A DNA stretch of 10,134 nucleotides from a virus. The position numbers were made by a program, and so were the translations under genes. The notes beneath the pieces are model-generated. The model worked only from the letters and a program-made list of their open reading frames with translations. It made no database searches and was not told where the DNA came from. The stretch is from the UHGV virus genome UHGV-1424210; one strand, 5' to 3'. Shown here in pieces: positions 1-10,134 of this stretch. Position 1 is the stretch's first letter; each line of letters starts with the position of its first letter.

Positions 1-96
1 AGATTCGCGCCATGTGCTTTTGCCCTTGAGCAATTCCTTAAAGAGTACAGGGAAACGCGCCCATTGCAGGTATGGCAACGAACTGAACCAGACTGA
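1..96 (+). CDS. Possible 3' end of a gene entering from the left edge (partial, 31 codons, stop TGA 94-96)
   Basis: Frame 1 is open from the window edge to TGA at 94-96 (…RFAPCAFALEQFLKEYRETRPLQVWQRTEPD). A plus-strand intrinsic terminator lies about 65 bp downstream. No recognisable motif. Confidence 0.25.
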   Translation, partial: RFAPCAFALEQFLKEYRETRPLQVWQRTEPD

Positions 97-160
97 TTGC
101 ATTGCCCACCAGCCTGATAGCGGCTATCATCCCCGTGCTTATGTTTAGTGTTTTCCCATT

Positions 161-189
161 GGCGACCGCCCCCGGTCGCCTTTGTTTTA
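161..189 (+). terminator. Rho-independent terminator, plus-strand orientation
   Basis: Perfect 8-bp GC-rich stem GGCGACCG (161-168) / CGGTCGCC (173-180) with loop CCCC, followed by TTTGTTTTA (181-189). On the minus strand the hairpin is not followed by a U-tract. Confidence 0.5.
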
Positions 190-207
190 TGTGTCATATG
201 CTCCCCT

Positions 208-417
208 TTACACTGCCTTACCTGAATTAATGCGATCCCGGCTTTTAACCCATTCCATAACCTCGGACAGCAGCCACCCTACAGAACGACCGCCCAGATT
301 AAGACGTGACGGAAAGCTCCCTTTTTTCTCCAGTTCGTAGCGTGTAGTGCGACACACTCCAGTTAACTTACGACATTCATCCTCACGGATTACGCGATCT
401 TCATTTATTTCACGCAT
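208..417 (-). CDS. alpA: AlpA-family (prophage CP4-57 regulatory protein / excisionase-like) helix-turn-helix regulator, about 69 aa
   Basis: Translation MREINEDRVIREDECRKLTGVCRTTRYELEKKGSFPSRLNLGGRSVGWLLSEVMEWV fits the AlpA/Xis-like HTH pattern. Start set at the ATG at 417-415. The ORF-track start at 504 is a GTG directly abutting AAGAGG, with no usable spacing, and would add 29 non-conserved residues. Confidence 0.75.
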   Translation of the reverse strand: MREINEDRVIREDECRKLTGVCRTTRYELEKKGSFPSRLNLGGRSVGWLLSEVMEWVKSRDRINSGKAV

Positions 418-758
418 ACAAAAACCTACATAAAAATTACGTATATAAACTTTTCTCTTAGCTGTAGATATATGAGATCGGATATTACTTAGATTCTTTT
501 TCACCTCTTAAATTAAAAACACAACCATGCTAAAGGCTTTGTTCGCTAAGGTTCGTAGAAGCTCGTTAGTGTTTAAAATCGTGTCACGAGTTTTTAAGCG
601 ACGCAACAAAAAATGTCGTCATTTGGCATGACACCTTAATTACCTCATTAAAAACAAATAGATAAACCATCAGGTGTTGGAACAATCAAGAAACAGAGAA
701 TAAGAACTCAGAAGAAGACATTTCAATTTTTTTCGATAGTTGACACATATAAAGAGAA

Positions 759-784
759 GATATTTGCAGATATTCCCCGATATT
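759..784. promoter_or_regulatory. Three GATATT hexamers at exact 10-bp phasing (759, 769, 779) in the AT-rich int-alpA spacer
   Basis: gatatttgca gatattcccc gatattctaa; helical phasing suggests a protein-binding array. It lies upstream of alpA and just downstream of the int stop. Confidence 0.35.
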
Positions 785-798
785 CTAAGATCTATTCA

Positions 799-830
799 CG
801 GCTGTAATCTCTTAAAGAAAAAACAGCCGT
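799..830. other. Inverted repeat ACGGCTGT (799-806) / ACAGCCGT (823-830) immediately downstream of the int stop
   Basis: Perfect 8-bp inverted repeat separated by 16 bp of A/T-rich sequence. Not a canonical terminator because no U-tract follows on the minus strand. Confidence 0.3.
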
Positions 831-836
831 AATTTG

Positions 837-2075
837 TCAAGAATTTTGGGGGTAAATTCGCGGGGTCATAACAACGATTTTTTCATCATTGTTCTGGAGA
901 AGCTCGAGACGGTCTACCCATAGATTAAGAGCATCACGTTTTGCATCAAGGTAGCGGGAGTGGTTATAGACTCGTTGCATCCCTGGCATCTGGTGGGCTG
1001 TAAGCTGCTCGACAATATGCGGATCCACGCCTAAATCGTTCAGCATGGTTGTAAATGTGTGCCGGATATCGTGTAACGTCCAGGGGGCTTGATTAATTCG
1101 TCTGTGCGCTGTTCTTCCGTACTCTGCTACCGAAGATTGTCCTTTCAGTTCACCAAGCAATAAGCCTGTGTGTCTGTTCTGCTCCACCAGTTGCGTGACG
1201 AACGGCAAAATGCTTTCCGGTATTGGCCTGAATATGGCGACCTTCGTTTTGCTGTGCTCCTTCGGTACTGTCCAGAGCATTTCTTTAAAATCCCACTCCT
1301 GCACCTCAGAGCGCCTTAGCTCAGTGGTACGGCATCCAAAAACAATCAGGAGGCGAATTAGGGCGCTGTAGTATGGCGGGAATATTTTGTCATCCAGGGC
1401 GCGGAGTAATTCCCCAAGCTCCTTATTTGTTAGTACGCGCTCGCTCACTTCTGCTTTTTTTCCCACATCACCGACAACCATATCATCAAGAACGTTGCTG
1501 ATTGCGTATCGTCGTTTTCGGCAGTACTTAAGCGCCTGTTTGCATACCTGTAGCAAAAATCCGGCAGATACAGGGCTTCGCTTTGCCATCTGGTCAAAAC
1601 ATGCCAACCAGTGCCGTAGCTCGCATTTTTCCAACGGCAAAGCGCCAATCTGGCTGATTATGTGTTTATTGATCCGGCTTTTCAGTGATTCGTAGTCAGT
1701 GCGCTTTTCCTTTGCATACGATTCAAGCCAGTAAGTGAGCGCTTCCTTAACTGTCACGGGGGCTAACGCATCCTGTACAGCACGATTAAGCTCATAGCGC
1801 GGATTTTTCCCCTCAGCCAGCCAGGCGCGACACTGTGCTGCTTTTTCCCTGGCTGCTTTCAGGCTCAGATCGGGATAATTGCCCAGTCTCAGACGTTCCG
1901 GTGATACCTGCCTACCAGTTCCGGCCCTGTAAGTGAAATACCAGGTTAACAGGCCGCTGGTGGAATGTCTTACGCTAAGATTGCCACCGTCATTAAAAAA
2001 GGCGTTTTTTGTGGTTGGTGATCCGCTTAATTTTCGTAAAAGAGTGTCGCTAAGTCTATGAATTGCGCTGCTCAT
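837..2075 (-). CDS. int: Site-specific tyrosine recombinase (P4-type integrase), 412 aa
   Basis: Full-length ORF starting with ATG at 2075-2073. C-terminal catalytic-domain signatures: conserved Arg in LIVFGCRTTELRR, His-x-x-Arg box WTLHDIRHTFTT, and a C-terminal Tyr region QRVYNHSRYLD. Overall resemblance to P4/CP4-57-type integrases. Confidence 0.9.
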   Translation of the reverse strand: MSSAIHRLSDTLLRKLSGSPTTKNAFFNDGGNLSVRHSTSGLLTWYFTYRAGTGRQVSPERLRLGNYPDLSLKAAREKAAQCRAWLAEGKNPRYELNRAVQDALAPVTVKEALTYWLESYAKEKRTDYESLKSRINKHIISQIGALPLEKCELRHWLACFDQMAKRSPVSAGFLLQVCKQALKYCRKRRYAISNVLDDMVVGDVGKKAEVSERVLTNKELGELLRALDDKIFPPYYSALIRLLIVFGCRTTELRRSEVQEWDFKEMLWTVPKEHSKTKVAIFRPIPESILPFVTQLVEQNRHTGLLLGELKGQSSVAEYGRTAHRRINQAPWTLHDIRHTFTTMLNDLGVDPHIVEQLTAHQMPGMQRVYNHSRYLDAKRDALNLWVDRLELLQNNDEKIVVMTPRIYPQNS

Positions 2076-2098
2076 GTTTAGCGTTTCCGGTCATCAAA

Positions 2099-2355
2099 AT
2101 TAACTACACCATTGACTACACCGTGCATCGTACAAGGGCAAACCGTGACGAACAAGAGCGAACAAGGAAAACAAAATTTTCCTTTATAATCATAGCGATG
2201 AATGCACACAAAACACTACCACGAACACCCGCGAACACTAGATGATAAATAACTATCATTTATATCATTTAGTTAATTAGTCTTTATTTTTCATTATGTT
2301 GCAAATAACAAGCCCGTCAAAAACAGTGATATTAACTACACCATTAACTACACCG
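2099..2355. repeat. Pair of 25-bp direct repeats, ATTAACTACACCATT(G/A)ACTACACCG, at 2099-2123 and 2331-2355
   Basis: The two copies differ at one position and are 232 bp apart. Each is itself a tandem duplication of ATT(A/G)ACTACACC. They flank the putative int promoter. Confidence 0.7.
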
Positions 2356-2386
2356 CTTCACGAACAATATCGAACAACCGCGAACA
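2149..2386. repeat. Seven CGAACA hexamers in helically phased (10-bp) groups upstream of int
   Basis: CGAACA at 2149 and 2159; at 2222 and 2232; and at 2361, 2371 and 2381, with exact 10-bp spacing within each group. Candidate integrase arm-type or AlpA/RDF binding sites. Confidence 0.6.
2293..2320 (-). promoter_or_regulatory. Candidate sigma70 promoter directed toward int
   Basis: On the minus strand: -35 TTGACG (reverse complement of 2315-2320), 16-bp spacer, -10 CATAAT (reverse complement of 2293-2298). Predicted leader of about 210 nt to the int ATG at 2075. Lies between the repeat groups. Confidence 0.35.
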
Positions 2387-2642
2387 AAGATCAACACGCT
2401 TTAATCATTATCATTTTCCGGCTATCCGTCATGAAGCTGGTGGATGATCTGCGTGGTGATTTCCACCATTCAGAGCAGGGGCGGTCATCATGACCATGCC
2501 ATAACAAAAACCCCATATTCGTGGTTTTTCTGTGTCGGGGCTATTCTGCTGTTGCCGTGCTGGTGGATATTCTCCGGTATGCGGCTCCCCATATCGGCAT
2601 CAGGCCCACCAGCGTGAAGCGTTTTTCATTTTTCGCGGGTAT

Positions 2643-2702
2643 AAAAAATCGATGGGGCGGGCAGTCCTGAAGACGTCAGGGTACAGAGATTTGACCCGCC
2701 CC
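2643..2702 (-). terminator. Intrinsic terminator (minus strand): compound GC stem followed by U6
   Basis: GGGGCGGG (2654-2661) pairs with CCCGCCCC (2695-2702), enclosing an inner hairpin CCTGA-agacg-TCAGG (2666-2680). On the minus-strand RNA this is followed by AUCGAUUUUUUAU (plus-strand A-run 2643-2648). Confidence 0.5.
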
Positions 2703-2716
2703 TCCCTGTGCATGAG

Positions 2717-2752
2717 CACAATAAGTAACCGAAGGCGGAATTCCGCCCTCGG
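2717..2752 (-). terminator. Intrinsic terminator (minus strand): 10-bp stem around GGCGGAATTCCGCC plus U-rich tail
   Basis: Minus-strand RNA CCGAGGGCGG-AAUU-CCGCCUUCGG (one G-U pair) followed by UUACUUAUUGUG. First terminator reached after the packaging operon. Confidence 0.5.
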
Positions 2753-2784
2753 TACTTACATATGAGAAACGATATTTCTTCCAC

Positions 2785-2925
2785 CGATACCCTTTATTTG
2801 GGTATCGCGAGTAAGCCCCAAAATCTGGGTGTTACTCTTACTACCCAAACTACGGGTAGTTTCCGTAGTTTCATGGTCGAGTTGCAAATCTGCAACTCAC
2901 CCACCAGCCAACGCAATTTTGCGTT
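2785..2925. other. Cluster of four hairpins / inverted repeats in the untranslated region downstream of the packaging genes
   Basis: H1 CGATACCC-tttattt-GGGTATCG (2785-2807); H2 alternative stems ACTACCC/GGGTAGT (2840-2860) or AAACTACGG/CCGTAGTTT (2847-2871); H3 GAGTTGC-aaatct-GCAACTC (2879-2898); H4 AACGCA-attt-TGCGTT (2910-2925). Confidence 0.45.
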
Positions 2926-2943
2926 ATCGGGAATATCAGCAAG

Positions 2944-3324
2944 TTACCGCCGCAGTCGTTCCGGCTTCTTCCACTGGTAAGTACTTTTCGCGCTCTCCCT
3001 CCGTTGTTGAGAACGGCGACGGTATGCCAGCAACTCAAGGACTCTGGTTCGTATGTTGCGCATATCCACGCCGTTAAGCTCAATACCATCACGGCGCATC
3101 ACCTCAGCAACAACACGCGCGTAATTTTCGGCTATCACGCTGTCCGGCTGCGTGGCCTCCTGTTCGCCAGCCTGCTGGCTGATTCCGGTAATACTGCGGA
3201 TTATCCCGAGCGCTTCGGTCTCGGTCATGGTCATGGTCATGGCCTCCATAGTGATGGCGGGTCCTCCTTGTGGGGTGCCCTGCCACGGGGCGGGAGCATC
3301 GCGGAAAAAGGCTAGTTTTTGCAT
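2944..3324 (-). CDS. Hypothetical protein downstream of terS (126 aa from ATG 3324; more likely about 101 aa from ATG 3249)
   Basis: Same strand as the operon. A strong SD, AAGGAGGA, lies 13 nt upstream of the internal ATG at 3249; the ATG at 3324 has no SD. Contains an in-frame (ATGACC)3 repeat encoding MTMTMT. No recognisable family. Confidence 0.45.
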   Translation of the reverse strand: MQKLAFFRDAPAPWQGTPQGGPAITMEAMTMTMTETEALGIIRSITGISQQAGEQEATQPDSVIAENYARVVAEVMRRDGIELNGVDMRNIRTRVLELLAYRRRSQQRRESAKSTYQWKKPERLRR

Positions 3325-3485
3325 TTTTATTCGTCATCACCACCAATGCAATATATTGATATGACTTGATGTTTTATTTTTCGGTGTCGATTTCGATTGT
3401 TTTTTGTTCATCACTGACGCATAACGCCCACCAGCGCAACGCTGAAAGCCAGTCAGTAAACTGGCTTCGGTCATTGTGCACTACG

Positions 3486-4028
3486 TTACTTGTCTTTATC
3501 CGGCTGAAACTTATCAGGCACATTTCCGGTAGTTTCCATCAGATAATCGGACAGCATTCGCGGGATGTTTTCATCAAGTTTTGTGCATGCGTTACAGGCT
3601 CTGACAACTTCTTTTTTCAGGCCATCCAGCATGACGGGGGTCATCTGTGGGAAGCTCCTTTGCATAGTAAGCGGGAGGCTGTCCATGATTGATGAAATCT
3701 GACTCGCCAGTTTTGAAAGCGCGTACATGCAAAACTCTGTATCAATCACGTCACCGCGATCGCGCTCGTTTTTAAGTTCCTGCGCCTCCGCCTGTGCTGT
3801 CAGTAATCTGATCCTGACTCGTAAGAGTTCATCATCATCAATCTCGCCTTTGTCGTTTGTAAGCTGGCTAATTGCATTGTTAACCCTATTGTCTATCACG
3901 CTGGCAACATCATAAAACGCCTCACGGCCTTTACGTTCAACGGGAGTCACTCCCCACTTGTCGAATGCTGTAGCACTTACCCGGCAGCTTTGCGCCATGG
4001 TTTTTTTGTTCATCAGGTGCGATTTCAT
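3486..4028 (-). CDS. Terminase small subunit, lambda Nu1-like
   Basis: Full-length collinear similarity to lambda Nu1 as recalled: RLLTAQAEAQELKNERDRGDVIDTEFCMYALSKLASQISSIMDSLPLTMQRSFP… versus lambda RLTRAQADAQELKNARDSAEVVETAFCTFVLSRIAGEIASILDGLPLSVQRRFP…; C-terminus ENIPRMLSDYLMETTG versus ELIPGLLSEYIEQSG. The ORF-track start at 4031 is TTG; ATG candidates are 4028 and 4013 (MNKK…, matching lambda MEVNKK…). Confidence 0.85.
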   Translation of the reverse strand: MKSHLMNKKTMAQSCRVSATAFDKWGVTPVERKGREAFYDVASVIDNRVNNAISQLTNDKGEIDDDELLRVRIRLLTAQAEAQELKNERDRGDVIDTEFCMYALSKLASQISSIMDSLPLTMQRSFPQMTPVMLDGLKKEVVRACNACTKLDENIPRMLSDYLMETTGNVPDKFQPDKDK

Positions 4029-4129
4029 CAATATCCCAACTTGGTCAAGGTTTCAGGTTGGTGTGTTGGTGTTATCTTTCCCTTTTTATTCATGGAGATA
4101 GAGCAAACAACAAAACCACCACCACCACC

Positions 4130-4215
4130 CTGAAAAAGCTCATAAATAGCGAAAAACCGCAAGGTCGCCGCCCCGTAGCCTACCGGATCGCCGGAAAGGA
4201 CCCGCCAGCCAGAAC
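4130..4215 (-). other. Lambda-type cos site (cosQ/cosN-like); cosN cohesive-end sequence at 4162-4173
   Basis: Minus strand reads GGGCGGCGACCT at 4173-4162, identical to the lambda 12-nt cohesive end as recalled. Both flanks also resemble lambda: CGGGTCCTTTCCGGCGATCCGGTAGGCTACG upstream and TGCGGTTTTTCGCTATTTATGA downstream. About 135 bp upstream of the terS start, as in lambda. Confidence 0.8.
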
Positions 4216-4229
4216 GGGACCTAATTTCA

Positions 4230-4613
4230 TCAACCAATCAACTTATAGCGACCATCCCGTGCATTGCGACGTACACGCTCAATCTTGAGGCATAGCGCCG
4301 CATCTGGCTTTTTTGGGACAGGTACGCGGCAATATTCAGAAGCTCGAGGAATATTGTTTATCCAGTCGATCACTTCACTTAAATACCAGGCCTTACGCCC
4401 TTCCGTAACCTGTACGCGCTCGGGGAACTCTCCGCGAGCCTCAAGGTTTAGCAATGTGCGACGGCTAAGGGTAGTAAGTTCCATCACCTGATTCATATCA
4501 ACAAGGCGTTCACTTAAACGCATTTTGTCAGCAATAGCCTTTAATTCCTCTACTGCTGGATCCGGATACATCATTTCGGCAATTGGCTTAAGGTCATTGT
4601 AATGATTCTGCAT
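4230..4613 (-). CDS. AlpA-family HTH protein with an approximately 45-aa N-terminal extension (127 aa)
   Basis: C-terminal part VMELTTLSRRTLLNLEARGEFPERVQVTEGRKAWYLSEVIDWI matches the AlpA/excisionase-like HTH pattern. ATG at 4613 is preceded by SD AAGGGGGA at 5-nt spacing. Sits between the D-like gene and cos. Confidence 0.75.
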   Translation of the reverse strand: MQNHYNDLKPIAEMMYPDPAVEELKAIADKMRLSERLVDMNQVMELTTLSRRTLLNLEARGEFPERVQVTEGRKAWYLSEVIDWINNIPRASEYCRVPVPKKPDAALCLKIERVRRNARDGRYKLIG

Positions 4614-4624
4614 TGTATCCCCCT

Positions 4625-4966
4625 TTACACACGAGCCAGCGGCTGAACAGAAATACCTGAGCCAACAAACGCGGCAACCTTTGCCGACAGTTCTTTTACA
4701 GACTCAGGCCAGTTCAGAGCATCAACATTTAAAACACCTGTCTTATAAACCTGTGCCTGTGTTTTTTTCGCTGTGTCGATTTGTACAGCGGAAACATAAA
4801 CCGCTTTGCCTGCGCTCGTTCCATCCCATACCACTAGCGCACCAGTTGCATCTTCCTGCATCAGTGGCGTAAACGCAGGTATTACCCCTTTATTGGCTGA
4901 AAATATCCCCAGCGTAGTAACCAGTGCTTCAGTGCCAGACATGAGTTCAGTGTAATGAGTAGCCAT
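4625..4966 (-). CDS. Head decoration protein, lambda gpD-like (113 aa)
   Basis: Similar length to lambda D (110 aa), with shared motifs THY, TPLM, WDGT, KTG, WPE and a C-terminal AF-G-x-IS. SD AAGGGGGAG upstream of the ATG at 4966. Starts 10 bp after the capsid gene stop. Confidence 0.8.
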   Translation of the reverse strand: MATHYTELMSGTEALVTTLGIFSANKGVIPAFTPLMQEDATGALVVWDGTSAGKAVYVSAVQIDTAKKTQAQVYKTGVLNVDALNWPESVKELSAKVAAFVGSGISVQPLARV

Positions 4967-4975
4967 TGCTCCCCC

Positions 4976-6022
4976 TTAGCCAATGCGAACGGTAACAAAA
5001 CGATTGATGCGGGCCGGTATTGGCTGTGGTGCTGAATGTGTCTGCACATATTCAATAGCCGGATCACCAGGCACAATATAGTTTTTCGGTGCAAGTTCGG
5101 CTTTAGTCAGCCCCATCCGGATTAGCTCCGGATCCTGAATACCGCCATAAGCGACAATCCCCTGAAGAGCCGTATTGCCAAGCACCATCAAATCAGGATC
5201 AAGGAAATATTTTTCAGTTCCGTCCTCGTCGGTATAACGCCCGCTGTAAACAACAATCGCAACATCGCCCATATACCCTTTAAAACTCACCGAATCACCA
5301 AGGTCTTTAAGGGCCGTTTCCAGTTCGGAATTAGAACCACGACGAGTATCCAGAGCCTCTTTTATCGCCCTGAATGAACGGTATTTCTTCCATACATTAC
5401 CGCCCATAATGATAATATTAGTGACGCCCTCACTAAATTCTGCGTAGCTCTCAATATCATCATTTGGATCAAAAGCTTCTTTATCCTTACCTGACCACTC
5501 AGCACCGCCAGACTGAGTGATGATATTTTGTGGTTTAATATTCCAGTCCAGCTCATAACGTTCAATACCATCGCCCTCAATGATATTTTTCCCCGTTGTG
5601 ATTGCCTGAACGGCAAGCCATTCAATACGTGCACGAATAGCTTTAGCCTGATTTACAATCGCCTGTTTAACTTTAATATTACGCGCTCCAAAAGCATTGT
5701 ATTGCTCAGGTGATACACCAGCAGGGCGCACAGCTAACTTATTTGGATCAATGCTGCTTTTCGGTTTCATATAGCCAGGGCGAATTGTTTTTGATTCGTA
5801 TCCCTCATCTCGTGAAACTTTACTGCCCACCATAGGAGAGCAAAACGCCGCGATCGGGATATTTGGATCGTCGATCGTATCAAGAATAATGTCTCTCGAT
5901 TCAAACATTACCGAGCGAGTGAAAAACAAACTGGTAAACAACGCATTTAATTTTTTTTGCACATCTTCAGCATTAGCCACCTGCACAAGCTGTGTAGGCG
6001 AATATAAGTCAACCATACTCAT
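4976..6022 (-). CDS. Major capsid protein, lambda gpE-like (about 348 aa)
   Basis: Collinear similarity to lambda gpE as recalled, e.g. NIITQSGGAEWSGKDKEAFDPNDDIESYA and ALDTRRGSNSELETALKDLGDSVSFKGYMGDVAIVVYSGRY versus lambda NITQSGGTEWSKRDKSTYDPTDDIEAYA and KLDTRRGSNSELETAVKDLGKAVSYKGMYGDVAIVVYSGQY. Start set by homology at MSMVDLY (ATG 6022); the alternative ATG at 6016 has better SD spacing. The ORF-track start at 6103 is TTG. Confidence 0.9.
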   Translation of the reverse strand: MSMVDLYSPTQLVQVANAEDVQKKLNALFTSLFFTRSVMFESRDIILDTIDDPNIPIAAFCSPMVGSKVSRDEGYESKTIRPGYMKPKSSIDPNKLAVRPAGVSPEQYNAFGARNIKVKQAIVNQAKAIRARIEWLAVQAITTGKNIIEGDGIERYELDWNIKPQNIITQSGGAEWSGKDKEAFDPNDDIESYAEFSEGVTNIIIMGGNVWKKYRSFRAIKEALDTRRGSNSELETALKDLGDSVSFKGYMGDVAIVVYSGRYTDEDGTEKYFLDPDLMVLGNTALQGIVAYGGIQDPELIRMGLTKAELAPKNYIVPGDPAIEYVQTHSAPQPIPARINRFVTVRIG

Positions 6023-6187
6023 CCTCTTTACATTCATTACAAATAATTGTGAATATATTCTATTACCGATGTCTGCTATGCGAATACATGCAACCAAGTG
6101 CAATGTTGTATAAAATATGCTGTGACAACTTCAGTGCTGATAATTCGTGTTAATGTATTTACTTCCTTTGGTCGGGATTTATGTAGC

Positions 6188-6216
6188 ATGCCGGAAAATC
6201 TATTTTTTTCCGGCAT
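6188..6216. other. 11-bp-stem hairpin between the SSB-like and capsid genes (terminator-like)
   Basis: ATGCCGGAAAA (6188-6198) / TTTTCCGGCAT (6206-6216) with a 7-nt loop. A T-rich tract follows on the plus strand only, so its role in the minus-strand operon is uncertain. Confidence 0.35.
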
Positions 6217-6233
6217 CTTTTTGTTTGCAGAAT

Positions 6234-6656
6234 TTAAAACGGTATATTATCGCCGTACGGATCATCATTCCCCGACTGTTGTTTTGCCCTGTTCAGTGCG
6301 TCAGTGGCCTGCCCCTGCTGGCCTTTTTTGCCGCCCGGTCGCGCTGTTCGCGCACTGATCACGCTGTCTGCGATAACCTGCCAGCCCTGCCGCGTTTCGC
6401 CGTTCTGGCCTGTCCACTGGCTTACCTGCATGTTACCCGCCACGCTCACCAGTTCGCCTTTGTGGTGTTTTGCCAGTGCGTCGGCCTGTCTGCCAAACGC
6501 CAGGACGGATAACCACATCATCGCCGTTCCGTCATCTGCCTGGCTGCACGGAAGGGGGACCGCCATACTAGCCATCGCCATTTGTGTACCCTTGCTGGTG
6601 GTCTTTAACTGCGGGTCAGCCACCAGCCGTCCGTAAGCCGCTATCTGTGCTGTCAT
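6234..6656 (-). CDS. Single-stranded DNA-binding protein (SSB)-like, 140 aa
   Basis: OB-fold-like core WLSVLAFGRQADALAKHHKGELVSVAGNMQVSQWTGQNGETRQGWQVIADSV resembles E. coli SSB [51 protein letters not shown]. Gly/Gln-rich linker and acidic C-terminal tip DDPYGDNIPF (compare SSB DFDDDIPF). SD GGAGAG upstream; the start ATG overlaps the upstream stop (ATGA). Confidence 0.65.
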   Translation of the reverse strand: MTAQIAAYGRLVADPQLKTTSKGTQMAMASMAVPLPCSQADDGTAMMWLSVLAFGRQADALAKHHKGELVSVAGNMQVSQWTGQNGETRQGWQVIADSVISARTARPGGKKGQQGQATDALNRAKQQSGNDDPYGDNIPF

Positions 6657-6895
6657 GCTGTCTGCTCTCCGGTTTTAACGTTGATGGTTGTCACCTGTTC
6701 CGCTTCGGCAATCTCCCGTTCTGTCAGCGTGGCAAAGTTTGCAGCTGCCGTTGTCATGAATGCGCTAATCAGTTCGGGATGTGCTTTCGCATATCCTTCC
6801 CCGGCGTTGCGGTCGATGATTTTTATCGCCACTCTCAGCCAGTGCTCTGTAAGGTCAATAGCGCGGTAGTGTGGTTGTTTGCGGTTTTCCTTCAT
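6653..6895 (-). CDS. Hypothetical protein, 80 aa, translationally coupled to the SSB-like gene
   Basis: ATG-initiated ORF whose stop overlaps the SSB-like start (ATGA). First gene after the iteron region. No recognisable motif. Confidence 0.5.
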   Translation of the reverse strand: MKENRKQPHYRAIDLTEHWLRVAIKIIDRNAGEGYAKAHPELISAFMTTAAANFATLTEREIAEAEQVTTINVKTGEQTA

Positions 6896-6935
6896 AGTTC
6901 AGATCTCAATTTTTCGTATATATATACAAAACAGT

Positions 6936-7250
6936 GCGGGTTATGCGGGTTAGCGGGTTATCTTCGCTTGCTAAGTATTTTTTATTCCTTAATATCAATA
7001 CATTACAAAATTAACTGTTTACTGTTTAGCCGTGGCGTAACCCGCAAAATGCTCAAAATAACCCGCAAACGGGGTTTTTTCTGCGGGTTACGCGTGGCTG
7101 TTTGCTGTCACTTCCTGTTATTCATCTGCGGGTTATAATCGCACTTTTGCGGGTTATAACTGCCGTTTTGCGGGTTACGTGCGGGTTATTGATTTCCTTT
7201 TTATTCATGCAGTTAATGCACTTATACACAGAGTAACCCACATAACCCGC
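6936..7250. repeat. Iteron array (9-bp GCGGGTTAY) flanking an AT-rich stretch: candidate replication origin
   Basis: Direct copies at 6936-6944, 6945-6953, 6954-6962, 7083-7091, 7128-7136, 7149-7157, 7170-7178 and 7181-7189. Inverted copies (TAACCCGC) at 7036-7044, 7058-7066 and 7242-7250, plus a degenerate one near 7233-7240. AT-rich region 6962-7030. Immediately downstream of the Rep stop at 7274. Confidence 0.7.
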
Positions 7251-7273
7251 AACTTTTCACCTCACACAGGGGG

Positions 7274-9397
7274 TTAATCTTCTGCCTCAGGCTGGAACAT
7301 CAGCACGTAAAAAACATGCTGCTTCCCCCCAATTTTGCCGAGAGCCTTTTTCTTGTAACGGCGATCGTTACCCGCTTCCAGCATTCCGGCAGCACTCAAC
7401 GCGCGGGCAAAGTGGGACGGGTTAAATCCCTGTGCGATCTCCCCCTCAAACACATGAGGAAACGTGTAAAAACGGAACTCATCATCTTCATTTCTGATAC
7501 TCCCCTTTCTGTATCCGGCAAGGTCTTTAATCGGTAAATCACGTTCATCACTGTTTGGGTAAGGAAGGTATCGACTGAACCCGAACGACGACAAAAACGC
7601 CTCAGCCTGTTCAACCATCTGTTTAAATTCCCTGTTACCCGTGCCGAACTCCTTCACCCAGGCATTAAAGTTATGCTGTATTGCGTCCCGGCATTCCTGC
7701 GCGGCCCAGCCAGTTACATGACCGGAAAGCACAAGCGCGGCCTCCAGTATGGCGAAACGCTCACCCACGCGGTGGACTTGCTCGCCGTAGCTCTCCGGTA
7801 TCAGGTTGCGCCACCGTTCGCGGCATTCCCTTACCGTATCCTTTGCCTCCTGCTGGTGGCCTGCCAGCCATTTAACCCACTCACGACCCGCTGCCCCGTG
7901 ATTTTCTGTCCAGGCATCCTTTAACGCGTCTGCGTGCGCCTTTCCGGTGCTGTATTCGTGAAAGTGCGTGGCTTTTTCCATCGGAACGTTAAGCAGGCGG
8001 ACAAGCTGCCCCGCTTTGACTTTTATCCCCTCCGTTTTGAGGAATGTCTCAACGTCCATTTCTCCGGTGCTGATTGCCACCGTGCGCCAGTGTTTTATCT
8101 CCCGGTTGCCGCCGTCCTTCGCCCCCTGTAATTTCCCGGAACCGTTAAACAACGTATAGGCTGACGTGGACACCTCCCGCGCGTTTCCGGCCTGGCCTAT
8201 TTCATCCAGGGGTAACAGCCCGTCGTTGTGCGCCTCTGCCTCGTTAGCGATACCTAACGCTGTGCCGTACCAGGTCAGCCGTTGTGCGTCCGGCTCTCCC
8301 CATAAACTTGATGCGATGTTCTGCGTGGTGGTTTTCCCTGCCGATGACTGTTCGAAAAGATGTACCCCGAAGCCGTCAGCACCAACAAGGCCAATCAAAG
8401 GTGCTGCCAGTGACGTGGCAACACCCAGCATCATGGACGGATTGCCACCAGCCAGCCGCGCCACGCAGTCGCGCCAGCCCTCCGACGTACCCGCAACCGA
8501 ATAGCCATTAACAGTGGCACTTTTTCCGGTAAACAGGATCGGTTTTTCAGAATCACCAATGATTGAGCCGTCCGGCATGATATACGCGCCAAAATGCCAG
8601 CCCGTTGTTGTGCTTAGCTGCCATTCCTCATGGCTTCCGCTTAACTGCATCCAGTCAGCCAGGATAGCCCTGTATTTGCCGTTTGTTGTCACGTTCAGCC
8701 CGTGATCTTTAAGCAACCGCCAGCCGTCACGGTCGCCAATGCCACCACACGGGATCGCCATTGTGATGACTTCATGGTTTGCTAATTTTTTCCAGCGCAT
8801 CACGCGGTAATGCTCTTTACCGATCGTCCCCGTTCCCAGTAGTTCAAGCGGAGAACATAACCACGTCTCAGGCCGGATAATTTCGCCTGACTGCTTATCC
8901 ACTTTGGGCGTTACCCAGAAAACACCATCGACGCGACTTTCAACGCGGGGCTTTAATTCATCATCCTGATAGCATGGCTCTTTTTTCTTTACAGGCAGTT
9001 CAACTACCTTTTTCTTTTCCGCCTGCTCTGCCCGTTCACGTTCCAGATATTCGCGCCAGTTCTCCCGTTTCTGGCTGTGCATTCCTTCAGGGTAATAATC
9101 AGCATCCCTGACACCTGCCGCTGCCAGTTTCTGCCCGATGGTATTAACAAGCCCCGGACGCAATAACCCCGCCTGGTAGAGACGCACGCGATAGCGTCCG
9201 TCCGGTACGATTTGCAGGTTGTCCAGTTCGGCAAGTTGTTGCTCTCCAAGCCAGACAGGTGGCACGTTATCGCCAGCCAGTCGCCCGTCCTGTTCCTGCC
9301 ACTGCTTCGCATGTGCCCACGCATCACTACCCGCAAAAATGATGACTTCCGTCATTTTGTCACGCGGCTGGTGTTTTAAATTTGGCGCTTTTTTCAT
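7274..9397 (-). CDS. Replication initiator (primase/helicase-like ATPase; resembles DUF927-type proteins of CP4-57/PICI-like islands), about 707 aa
   Basis: Long ORF with P-loop-like motif FEQSSAGKTT and Walker-B-like LLPLDEIG. Adjacent iteron origin. Start set at ATG 9397 (SD GGAGAGAG, ATGA overlap with the upstream ORF stop); the ORF-track start at 9412 is GTG. Family assignment is from memory, not from a search. Confidence 0.8.
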   Translation of the reverse strand: MKKAPNLKHQPRDKMTEVIIFAGSDAWAHAKQWQEQDGRLAGDNVPPVWLGEQQLAELDNLQIVPDGRYRVRLYQAGLLRPGLVNTIGQKLAAAGVRDADYYPEGMHSQKRENWREYLERERAEQAEKKKVVELPVKKKEPCYQDDELKPRVESRVDGVFWVTPKVDKQSGEIIRPETWLCSPLELLGTGTIGKEHYRVMRWKKLANHEVITMAIPCGGIGDRDGWRLLKDHGLNVTTNGKYRAILADWMQLSGSHEEWQLSTTTGWHFGAYIMPDGSIIGDSEKPILFTGKSATVNGYSVAGTSEGWRDCVARLAGGNPSMMLGVATSLAAPLIGLVGADGFGVHLFEQSSAGKTTTQNIASSLWGEPDAQRLTWYGTALGIANEAEAHNDGLLPLDEIGQAGNAREVSTSAYTLFNGSGKLQGAKDGGNREIKHWRTVAISTGEMDVETFLKTEGIKVKAGQLVRLLNVPMEKATHFHEYSTGKAHADALKDAWTENHGAAGREWVKWLAGHQQEAKDTVRECRERWRNLIPESYGEQVHRVGERFAILEAALVLSGHVTGWAAQECRDAIQHNFNAWVKEFGTGNREFKQMVEQAEAFLSSFGFSRYLPYPNSDERDLPIKDLAGYRKGSIRNEDDEFRFYTFPHVFEGEIAQGFNPSHFARALSAAGMLEAGNDRRYKKKALGKIGGKQHVFYVLMFQPEAED

Positions 9398-9693
9398 TTC
9401 TGCTCTCTCCACGCGGCAATCATGTTTTTCAGTTCCTGTAGTTTTTTATCCACATCCACACGTGACACATGGTTATTTCTGGAAGTCGGGATTTCCCGCC
9501 GGAATCTGCAAATAAAGATCTCCACGTTCAGCGAACTAAGAAATGAATAGCCATCACGGATAAAATACACACGGTCAAACATCAGTTCTTTTACCGTTAC
9601 TCTGTTACCGTTCTTATCCAGATAAATAGCGCCGGGGATAATTTGGGGGTGTGCATAACCGCTGGCAGTCAAGCCAGATAAATACGTTCTCAT
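9394..9693 (-). CDS. Hypothetical protein, 99 aa, translationally coupled to rep
   Basis: ATG at 9693 with an upstream GGGGAT; stop overlaps the rep ATG. No recognisable motif. Confidence 0.55.
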   Translation of the reverse strand: MRTYLSGLTASGYAHPQIIPGAIYLDKNGNRVTVKELMFDRVYFIRDGYSFLSSLNVEIFICRFRREIPTSRNNHVSRVDVDKKLQELKNMIAAWREQK

Positions 9694-9699
9694 GATTAT

Positions 9700-10020
9700 T
9701 TATCCCCGATTTGAATCAGTATTCGCTTTCTTTATAGCATTTAATGCATCTGTGGCATTTTCAATGGTGCACCGTAACGAAATATCAAAATGTCCAAGCA
9801 TTGCCAGTAACAAACCGATATTACCCATATCAATGCGCATGGCCTTTTCGTCATAGTCCTCATTTTCTGACGCATGCCACATCAGGCTACCAATTGACGC
9901 AACAGCCATTGATATATTGTCAGTAGCCCCATCCGCAGCGGAATAAACCTTTTTAGCAATATCATGCTCACAGTTAAAATGCGGATTAATCAGGTACTGG
10001 TAATTTGACATATCAGGCAT
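9700..10020 (-). CDS. Hypothetical protein, 106 aa
   Basis: ATG-initiated ORF. Its start overlaps the stop of the upstream partial ORF by 8 nt. Six bp separate its stop from the next start. Confidence 0.55.
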   Translation of the reverse strand: MPDMSNYQYLINPHFNCEHDIAKKVYSAADGATDNISMAVASIGSLMWHASENEDYDEKAMRIDMGNIGLLLAMLGHFDISLRCTIENATDALNAIKKANTDSNRG

Positions 10021-10134
10021 GGCACACCCCCTGACGAATACGGGCAGCGAATACCATCACGCAGCCAGCCGGGGATTGCAGGCGTGCTTCCTGTTCGCTG
10101 GTGGCCTCAATGGTAATCACGCGCGGTTGTGCCG
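10013..10134 (-). CDS. Partial CDS (C-terminal 39 codons) entering from the right edge
   Basis: Open minus-strand frame from the window edge to TGA at 10015-10013 (…VITIEATSEQEARLQSPAGCVMVFAARIRQGVCHA), overlapping the next gene start; indicates an operon of at least four genes. Confidence 0.4.
   Translation of the reverse strand, partial: AQPRVITIEATSEQEARLQSPAGCVMVFAARIRQGVCHA

Follow-up and report, generated by a model that had tools for sequence, protein, structure and literature searches.

The last gene of an EcCICFT073-type island of Escherichia coli: a small conserved protein, an inverted cos site and a hexamer repeat

The DNA analysed here, the virus genome UHGV-1424210 (10,134 nucleotides; this whole stretch is called the window below), contains downstream of a small terminase gene (terS) a small open reading frame (ORF) with three in-frame copies of the hexanucleotide ATGACC. 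A first-pass annotation, made from the letters alone and without naming a strand, had placed this ORF behind terS, which is borne out by the ORF list and by Pfam and PHROG matches of a Nu1-like terS, and had taken it for a protein of no recognisable family in the slot that lambda gives to gpA. The ORF lies on the minus strand. Judged by its sequence, the window is the excised form of a phage-inducible chromosomal island (PICI), and the ORF is the last gene of this island and a homolog of c1505 of EcCICFT073 and of ECs_1599 of strain Sakai. Two readings of it have to be distinguished:

2944..3324, minus strand: 126-codon reading from ATG to stop, as given by the ORF list
2944..3228, minus strand: core coding sequence of a c1505-family protein, 94 amino acids (aa) plus stop, from the last ATG of the repeat, based on PHROG 1561, PGAP and dN/dS

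A conserved coding sequence of 94 to 96 codons

The ORF has no match in Pfam, NCBIfam or the PDB sequences, and to this extent it was correct to speak of no recognisable family. The statement does not hold with regard to PHROG 1561 (function unknown), which matches with E=2e-50, and to the 981 homolog clusters found in a search of 5.8 billion clusters, essentially all of them from E. coli, Shigella and other Enterobacteriaceae. The PHROG match is confined to residues 33-126 of the long reading and spans the entire profile (positions 1-93 of 93). When 1.8 billion representatives at 50% identity were scanned exhaustively with HMMER, only 37 matches were obtained, almost all with more than 60% identity, and the scan of one genome per bacterial species gave one locus only. 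Of 5426 complete E. coli genomes, about 1900 (approximately 35%) match the 3' two-thirds of the gene at 80-95% nucleotide identity, and a single weak partial match was obtained among 50,697 phage records. By this distribution, the c1505 / PHROG 1561 family is shown to be confined to enterobacterial satellites. A match to a 2175-aa protein in the search of representatives (P0141) was discarded as a chance match to a eukaryotic repeat protein, and the context of a Klebsiella 'phage' match is uninformative.

Over the 94-codon core the pairwise dN/dS values are 0.17-0.36, with dS of up to 0.77, and the substitutions in 80 loci are distributed over codon positions 1, 2 and 3 of the minus-strand frame as 508/508/1314. 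This excess at the third position of the minus-strand frame excludes antisense ORFs on the plus strand, for instance 3004..3315. The substitution pattern thus shows that the target is a real protein-coding gene of 94-96 codons under purifying selection. Conservation in related elements, the lack of which the first-pass annotation had named as a refutation, is clearly present. The target is 71-91% identical at the amino acid level to c1505, ECs_1599 and the homolog from the D8 island, and it has the features of the family, i.e. a core of 94 aa (range about 93-97 aa) and the C-terminal motif Y-(Q/H)-W-(K/R)-K-P-E-R-L-R-R. The gene is already catalogued, under the names PHROG 1561, c1505 and ECs_1599, as an uncharacterised one, and the target adds a new member from a known type of element.

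The 94-aa product has a mass of 10.9 kDa and a pI of 10.2, with a net charge of about -6 in residues 1-52 and about +10 in residues 53-94. An AlphaFold2 model, calculated from an alignment of 16 sequences, has a mean pLDDT of 75 (above 88 for residues 30-70) and contains helices at residues 3-14, 29-46 and 53-83, that is, a helical hairpin and an N-terminal helix on a low-confidence linker. Invariant positions cluster at G48, L51, N52 and D55 of the hairpin loop and in the C-terminal tail Y-x-W-K-K-P-E-R-L-R-R, in which Y84, W86, L92 and R93 are invariant and K88, P89 and E90 are at least 90% conserved (alignment A1). The model thus suggests a three-helix protein that is bipolar, its N-terminal half being acidic and its C-terminal tail basic and invariant (Y-Q/H-W-K-K-P-E-R-L-R-R). 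Through this tail it would probably bind DNA or a protein partner.

Several known protein classes were considered and rejected. Neither hhalign nor BLAST comparisons with Nu1, the island TerS, gpA, W, B, C, Nu3, D, E, FI and FII gave any indication of a diverged terminase or lambda head protein. The properties of a large terminase are likewise missing, as the protein has only 94 aa, lacks a Pfam match and resembles neither gpA nor the TerL of capsid-forming PICIs (cf-PICIs). The same holds for gpW (PF02831), with no Pfam match, an all-helical model and a BLAST E of 3. Identity with an Rpp protein was rejected too: PDB sequence searches of the ORF, the TerS homolog and an AlpA-like ORF of the window revealed no RppC, the hhalign probability of the target against Nu1 and TerS is below 1%, and the AlphaFold2 model has no winged helix-turn-helix (HTH).

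The inverted cos site, the start codon and the hexamer repeat

The 5' part of the ORF overlaps or adjoins the following features:

3223-3240, minus strand: perfect (ATGACC)3 array encoding MTMTMT in frame (TRF)
3229..3234, minus strand: extra ATGACC unit; its ATG (3232-3234) is the one best placed behind GGAGG and gives a 96-aa product, MTMTETE...
3243..3247, minus strand: Shine-Dalgarno (SD) sequence GGAGG inside ATGGAGGCC, serving the repeat ATGs, in a context conserved in L027, L066 and L050
3241..3324, minus strand: spurious 5' extension peculiar to the 126-codon reading; it spans cosQ and cosN of cos2 and is homologous to phage cos regions
3255-3418, plus strand: cos2, a complete cos region (cosQ-cosN-cosB side), inverted relative to the island genes and to the second site, cos1
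3259-3265, plus strand: cosQ-like GGGTCCT of cos2, the reverse complement of which is part of a 'strong SD', AAGGAGGACCC
3288-3299, plus strand: cosN equivalent of cos2, GGGCGGGAGCAT (lambda: GGGCGGCGACCT), from the alignment with the lambda cos junction

cos2 is 86-88% identical over 164 nt to the cos regions of the lambdoid phages phi458 and mEp460, and it also matches a stretch without annotation that separates the lysis genes from the small-terminase gene in O157 and Qin-type prophages. Its junction reads ccacG/GGGCGGGAGCAT/CGCGG, versus ttacG/GGGCGGCGACCT/CGCGG in lambda, and the cosN 20-mer occurs a single time in the window, with 0 occurrences expected by chance. The motif GGGTCCT is located 22-23 nt upstream of cosN in both cos2 and lambda; at this distance, GGGTCCT is the cosQ of lambda.

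The first ATG of the 126-codon reading (3322-3324) is located 23 nt past cosN on the cosB side, and codons 1 to approximately 25 traverse cosN and cosQ. The homologs of the extension are cos regions of lambdoid phages, most of them without annotation, and it is not kept as a protein between islands of different cos types: islands with a lambda-type cos2 have an in-frame extension of wholly different sequence that contains no ATG, and in cf-PICIs, where the gene begins 9-17 nt after the terL stop codon, there is no extension at all. These comparisons show that the 126-codon reading is an artefact, the first 25 or so codons being an antisense reading of an inverted mEp460-type cos2. It is extremely improbable that the long form from ATG 3324 is nevertheless the true product, since, although the frame is open from there and several pipelines annotate 126-130 aa, no SD sequence precedes it (the upstream sequence is GACGAATAAAA), the part overlapping cosN and cosQ is conserved in phages as non-coding DNA, and both PHROG 1561 and PGAP begin at residue 33.

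The first-pass annotation listed two candidate starts, only the internal one having a strong SD. In fact there are five in-frame ATGs (3324, 3249, 3240, 3234 and 3228). An internal start is real, but the proposed SD is not convincing: AAGGAGGA (3262-3269) consists for the most part of cosQ and its flank in reverse complement (GGGTCCTCCTT), and the conserved spacing belongs to GGAGG at 3243-3247. The pairing energy of this GGAGG with the anti-SD is -9.3 kcal/mol, and the distances from its end to the first, second and third repeat ATG are about 1-2, about 7-8 and about 13 nt, respectively. The sequence AAGGAGGAC (-11.3 kcal/mol), which overlaps cosQ, ends 11 nt before ATG 3249, and this in-frame ATG (3247-3249, M26) is a possible minor start.

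The loci L027, L066 and L050 share the context GGAGG-CC-ATGACN-ATG, and in other lineages it reads GGAGG-CC-ATGACA-ATGACCGAAGCC. The unit in front of the family-wide start (MTEAE... or MTETE..., i.e. MTE[AT]E) is MT, VT, IT or MI elsewhere. Since this unit is variable, it acts as a spacer between the SD and the start and not as conserved coding sequence. RefSeq/PGAP place the start at 3228 (94-aa form, WP_024187550.1), which matches the family-wide position, and islands that carry 2, 3 or 5 units of the repeat share one PGAP accession. More than 1000 contigs are annotated with the 96-aa form. Translation would initiate at ATG 3234, approximately 8 nt behind GGAGG, with further initiation being possible at 3228 or 3249. 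Annotation pipelines mis-call the start of the gene in many genomes.

The in-frame (ATGACC)3 had been correctly noticed in the first pass; TRF reports it with a period of 6, 3.3 copies and 100% matches. By our own arithmetic, random sequence of 2 x 10 kb should contain a perfect threefold hexamer array about 1e-3 times. The repeat is not a product of chance, because its copy number differs between near-identical islands. The comparison across isolates that had been proposed indeed revealed between 1 and 5 copies of ATGACC in islands that are 98-100% identical elsewhere, always with preservation of the frame. One copy is present in P0018, two in L003, L019 and L023-26, three in the window, L001, L015, L017 and L018, four in P0009 and L016, and five in L002 and L014. 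At the DNA level the counts are 2, 3 and 5 in L003, L001 and L002, and at the protein level they range from 1 to 4. The protein lengths form a ladder of 122/124/126/128 aa, IMG/VR loci contain 2-5 copies, and the matched lengths of 1853, 1859, 1865 and 1871 nt in complete genomes are consistent with copy variation.

From these alignments, (ATGACC)n is shown to be a duplication of a unit consisting of spacer and start codon, and two units are, by comparison with the other lineages, the canonical state. The third unit of the window adds either one N-terminal Met-Thr (start 3234, 96 aa) or a 6-nt leader (start 3228, 94 aa). The variation in copy number is ordinary replication slippage of a hexamer. 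Since the unit is 6 nt long and each copy contains an in-frame ATG, there is no on/off switch, and the copy number would alter only the SD spacing and how many Met-Thr dipeptides stand at the N-terminus. The one-copy state, in which the only repeat ATG lies 2 nt from GGAGG, may lower translation.

Position of the gene and the surrounding island

The position of the gene was surveyed in 80 IMG/VR loci and six annotated genomes. In all of them the family gene is the last one of the island and is located downstream of, and co-oriented with, a packaging determinant. This is a Nu1-like TerS in 35 loci (with a gap of 255-278 nt that contains an inverted cosN of one of two types, or of 15-83 nt without cos), a cf-PICI TerL in 29 loci (gap of 9-17 nt), RppA or an Rpp-type module in approximately eight, a DUF1441-type TerS with an ATGA stop/start overlap in L041, and a bare co-oriented cos without any PICI terminase gene in L060 and L051. 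In the last two, cosQ-cosN-cosB (L060 6810-7077, L051 6530-6788) is followed about 230 nt further on by the family gene, which thus occupies the position of a phage small terminase.

Since cos is absent between TerS or TerL and the gene in many loci, cos2 is an optional insert. Since the gene follows such varied packaging determinants, the gpA slot is a coincidence of one architecture, and the protein shows no similarity to gpA, Nu1, Rpp, gpW or gpFI. The gene is also not the only one after terS, as had been stated, because attP and int follow on the same strand in the circular element. It belongs to the island backbone, and we infer that it is expressed with the late genes and co-transcribed with the late packaging operon. 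A perfect GC-rich palindrome about 190 nt past the stop codon forms a strong hairpin that is identical in the D8 cf-PICI, an unrelated island. This hairpin could be the terminator of the late operon before attP and int and, being bidirectional, could insulate int in the circular form. The gene itself lies 680 nt from the attP core.

The neighbouring genes in the window are all encoded on the minus strand. Apart from the features given above, the island contains:

208-504, minus strand: AlpA-type regulator beside int (PHROG profile search)
837-2075, minus strand: integrase int (library and profile searches of the window ORFs)
2242-2263: attP core ATGATAAATAACTATCATTTAT, a 22-nt overlap in which the attL and attR cores of the copy integrated in AR_0077 are combined
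2728..2753, minus strand: perfect 26-nt palindrome ACCGAAGGCGGAATTCCGCCCTCGGT, hairpin of 11 bp, 8 of them GC
3486..4028 (or 4031), minus strand: terS, Nu1 family, 180 aa, upstream neighbour of the target gene
4162-4173, minus strand: cosN of cos1, GGGCGGCGACCT, identical to lambda, just upstream of terS
4197-4203, minus strand: lambda-type cosQ of cos1
4230-4613, minus strand: second AlpA-family winged-helix protein, 127 aa (PDB 8c3t AlpA, E=2e-10)
4625-4966, minus strand: gpD-like decoration protein
4976-6103, minus strand: lambda gpE-like capsid protein
7274-9412, minus strand: DUF927 primase
further window neighbours, minus strand: a DUF4222 protein, an 80-aa protein and a single-stranded DNA-binding protein (SSB)

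Positions 2242-10134 of the window correspond to one end of an island of E. coli AR_0077 that is inserted between clpS and yljB/cspD, and positions 1-2263 correspond to the other (int) end of the same island; approximately 600 nt are absent between the two ends of the window. Because the 22-nt attP core is a hybrid of the two cores flanking the integrated copy, the window is, as judged from these junctions, the excised (circular or concatemeric) attP form of one PICI of 10,732 bp. The idea of two islands in tandem, with window positions 1-2242 belonging to a second element, was rejected on account of the hybrid core and because this part is the int end of the same island.

The PICI nature of the element is reflected by a terminal integrase, an AlpA-type regulator, a primase/replication module, its size, its own att site and two copies of cos. 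No tail or lysis genes were found among the window ORFs, and no tRNA, tmRNA or Rfam matches in the window. TerS (3486..4028) matches Pfam PF07471 Phage_Nu1 (E=1e-22) and PHROG 57 (E=6e-52), and it is 37% identical to lambda Nu1 over the full length and 47% to N15 gp1. A homolog of RppA was not found in the window (tblastn, E<=1), and its place is taken by this full Nu1-family TerS; an Rpp protein that redirects the TerS of the helper, as is typical of EcCICFT073-type PICIs, was hence not detected in the window. By its overall gene content, the element is an EcCICFT073-type Gram-negative cos PICI, that is, a phage-parasitising island of E. coli. EcCICFT073 is the archetype of Gram-negative cos-type PICIs, with the capsid gene c1499, the decoration gene c1500 and two cos sites (PMC6092414).

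As with c1499/c1500 in EcCICFT073, the gpE and gpD homologs of the island (4625-6103) are present without portal, protease and scaffold. The second AlpA-like gene is located between the decoration gene and cos1/terS, where EcCICFT073 has the unrelated 137-aa c1501. The two cos sites of the window have opposite orientations and different types of cosN, the lambda-type cos1 having its own divergent cosB. The presence of two cos types suggests that the island might be packageable by two groups of helpers. Short tandem arrays lie in the cosB-equivalent segment between the cosN of cos1 and the start of terS, namely (ACC)5 on the plus strand at 4115-4129 (five GGT on the gene strand) and two copies of GTTGGTGT at 4057-4072. 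These arrays are possibly binding repeats for TerS.

Two direct repeats of ATTAACTACACC (2099-2122 and 2331-2354) lie on either side of the attP core within a 56-nt pair (2100-2155 and 2332-2387), and EcCICFT073 carries the motif at its phoQ-side end, too. The repeats probably serve the integrase as arm-type binding sites. Iteron-like tandem repeats, three copies of TGCGGGTTA at 6935-6961 and 2.4 copies of the 21-nt unit TGCGGGTTATAACCGCACTTT at 7127-7177, separate the primase gene from the 80-aa ORF, and this gap is a likely replication origin. The SSB gene is annotated as frameshifted in the near-identical AR_0077 copy (L001 15994-16417) and is intact in the window.

Possible role of the product and comparison with known systems

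Some published experiments on EcCICFT073 include the homolog c1505. When the genes after ori were expressed singly from pBAD18, only c1503 (rppA) blocked lambda, and overexpression of c1505 caused neither interference with lambda nor a reduction of plaques (PMC6739421). The primers for pBAD18 'c1505' map to L011 3317-3690 and enclose the whole 93-aa gene (3374-3655). The reporter island of the transfer assays was c1504-07::cat, which was transferred by lambda and phi80 (PMC6739421). Its recombineering arms end at L011 3103 and 4002, i.e. 3104-4001 were removed, and it is devoid of cos2, c1505 and most of the att-proximal spacer. Since this reporter transfers without c1505, the family is not essential for the packaging of an Rpp-type island by lambda or phi80.

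The explanation that best accounts for all observations jointly, and that we consider probable, though far from certain, is that of a terminal PICI gene, homologous to c1505 and ECs_1599, whose long reading is an artefact of cos2, whose repeat stems from slippage, and whose product is a late accessory factor. Such a product would act at a late step that all types of PICI packaging share and would modulate transfer without being essential for it; it would not replace gpA, nor would it be dedicated to Nu1 as a partner. With regard to the role alone, a late, non-essential accessory factor common to all packaging types is the best inference, and a specific cofactor of TerS and gpA, a factor acting on att or Int, and an interference or defence cargo are less likely. 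'Packaging accessory factor', the term proposed in the first-pass annotation, may or may not be appropriate: the gene is always co-oriented and sometimes translationally coupled with terminase genes, and the c1505-less EcCICFT073 reporter speaks against an essential role.

There are several points that weigh against this explanation. The start codon and the translation of the gene are deduced from sequence, and annotation pipelines differ on the length of the product (94, 96, 98, 126 or 130 aa). The scans by which neither a promoter nor a terminator was predicted between terS and the gene are simple consensus scans. Sequence, profile and fold searches gave no informative relative, so that any biochemical role is conjecture. 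The deletion in c1504-07::cat also took cos2 and part of the attP-proximal spacer, and c1505 may contribute quantitatively to transfer, as the reporter lacked an isogenic c1505+ comparator of equal size. Furthermore, a mutant of the 'hypothetical gene 1792' of the cf-PICI EcCIEDL933 showed severely reduced, though not abolished, transfer. Gene 1792 is either the gene after terL or a 60-aa ORF between hnh and terS; the preprint, its supplements, the Sakai annotation and cluster names do not decide between the two. If it is the ECs_1599 homolog, 'non-essential modulator' understates the role of the family.

In that case a more far-reaching proposal would hold, which at present we regard as rather doubtful, namely that efficient PICI transfer, with any packaging strategy, needs the c1505 family as a universal core factor specific to satellites and that the hexamer array is a slippage 'rheostat'. 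It would imply a helper-dependent step common to all island types, such as the handling of cos DNA ends or the joining of tails, and the array would set the dose or the N-terminus in one lineage.

A packaging accessory factor specific for the island TerS and the gpA of the helper, in the place of lambda gpA, is unlikely. The gene is located directly downstream of a co-oriented terminase-related gene, to which it is sometimes translationally coupled, a cos site is often adjacent, and gene 1792 with its low-transfer phenotype might be a family member. However, the determinants that precede the gene are unrelated to each other (HK97-type TerL with its own TerS and HNH, RppA, DUF1441-type TerS or bare cos), the protein has no similarity to any lambda packaging protein, and an EcCICFT073 reporter deleted for c1505 is proficient in transfer, while c1505 does not interfere with lambda.

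There is similarly little to be expected from the assumption of a 'moron'-like protein at the 3' end of the island that interferes with the helper, defends against phages or modulates the host. It is true that the 5' or 3' ends of PICIs harbour accessory and immune genes (PMC11364771), and the family is satellite-specific and dispensable for the transfer of EcCICFT073. On the other hand, it is conserved across island types and not variable like defence cargo, PADLOC returned only noise (BrxA, E=0.012), and lambda plaques were undiminished by overexpressed c1505. The Tai defence system was considered as well and rejected, since it is located next to pri and not at the position of the target.

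Even less probable is a recombination or attP-associated factor, directional or architectural, for the P4-type integrase. The short distance of 680 nt to the attP core, the common strand with int in the circular form and the small, basic protein would suit such a factor, but near-identical proteins occur in islands with differing integrases and att sites (clpS/cspD, fis, phoQ, tRNA-Pro), the gene is coupled to late terminase genes and not to int/alpA, the model is not a winged helix as in known excisionases, and an AlpA-type regulator is already present beside int.

Irrespective of its exact role, the family is one of the few genes common to the three known packaging architectures of E. coli PICIs (Rpp-type, TerS-type and capsid-forming). 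The size of 94-96 aa, the origin of the long form from a backwards cos and the lack of association with a single type of terminase narrow the experiments that are needed.

The comparison with known systems illustrates both the common and the divergent traits of this gene. Its array resembles the contingency repeats at bacterial gene starts in that it is a tandem array in the initiation region with copy numbers that are polymorphic between close relatives. In contrast to these, it has a 6-nt unit with an in-frame ATG in each copy and cannot switch by frameshift, affecting at most the SD spacing and the N-terminal length; the on/off switching of expression that characterises contingency loci was not found, the frame being kept in all variants. 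With respect to lambda, cos1 precedes terS in the island as cos precedes Nu1 in the phage. The likeness of the target to gpA is only positional, both following Nu1 or its homolog, since gpA has 641 aa and the target 94 aa without a gpA-type ATPase or nuclease domain (BLAST against gpA and gpW: E >= 3). The gene of lambda gpW (68 aa, its C-terminal tail being basic) comes after that of the large terminase, as does the target family in cf-PICIs, but the beta-hairpin of gpW is absent from the all-helical predicted fold. Rpp proteins are likewise small PICI proteins encoded beside island cos sites in the late region, and RppA, RppB and RppC are known packaging-redirection factors of E. coli PICIs (PMC6739421). 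They differ from the target in their size of 144-153 aa, their Nu1-like N-terminal winged HTH and their coiled-coil dimerisation helix, and there is no sequence similarity.

The closest counterparts are found in other islands. The homologs ECs_1599 (in the Sakai 'prophage Sp7', i.e. the cf-PICI EcCIEDL933) and those of D8 and IAI39 are 74-91% identical in amino acid sequence (ECs_1599: 74%) and are also the last gene, but they follow an HK97-type TerL after 9-17 nt without a cos site in between, in islands that make their own capsids. EcCICFT073 has an equal layout of two cos sites, yet both copies are lambda-type, whereas cos2 of the window is of the mEp460 type (PMC6092414). Its c1505 (strain CFT073; WP_000133413.1) shares 71% amino acid identity with the target (93 versus 94 aa), is again the last island gene, and likewise has an inverted cos2 in front of it and about 550-700 nt of att-proximal DNA behind it; it differs in having rppA and not a TerS homolog upstream, a lambda-type cos2, and a single ATGACA start in place of the repeat.

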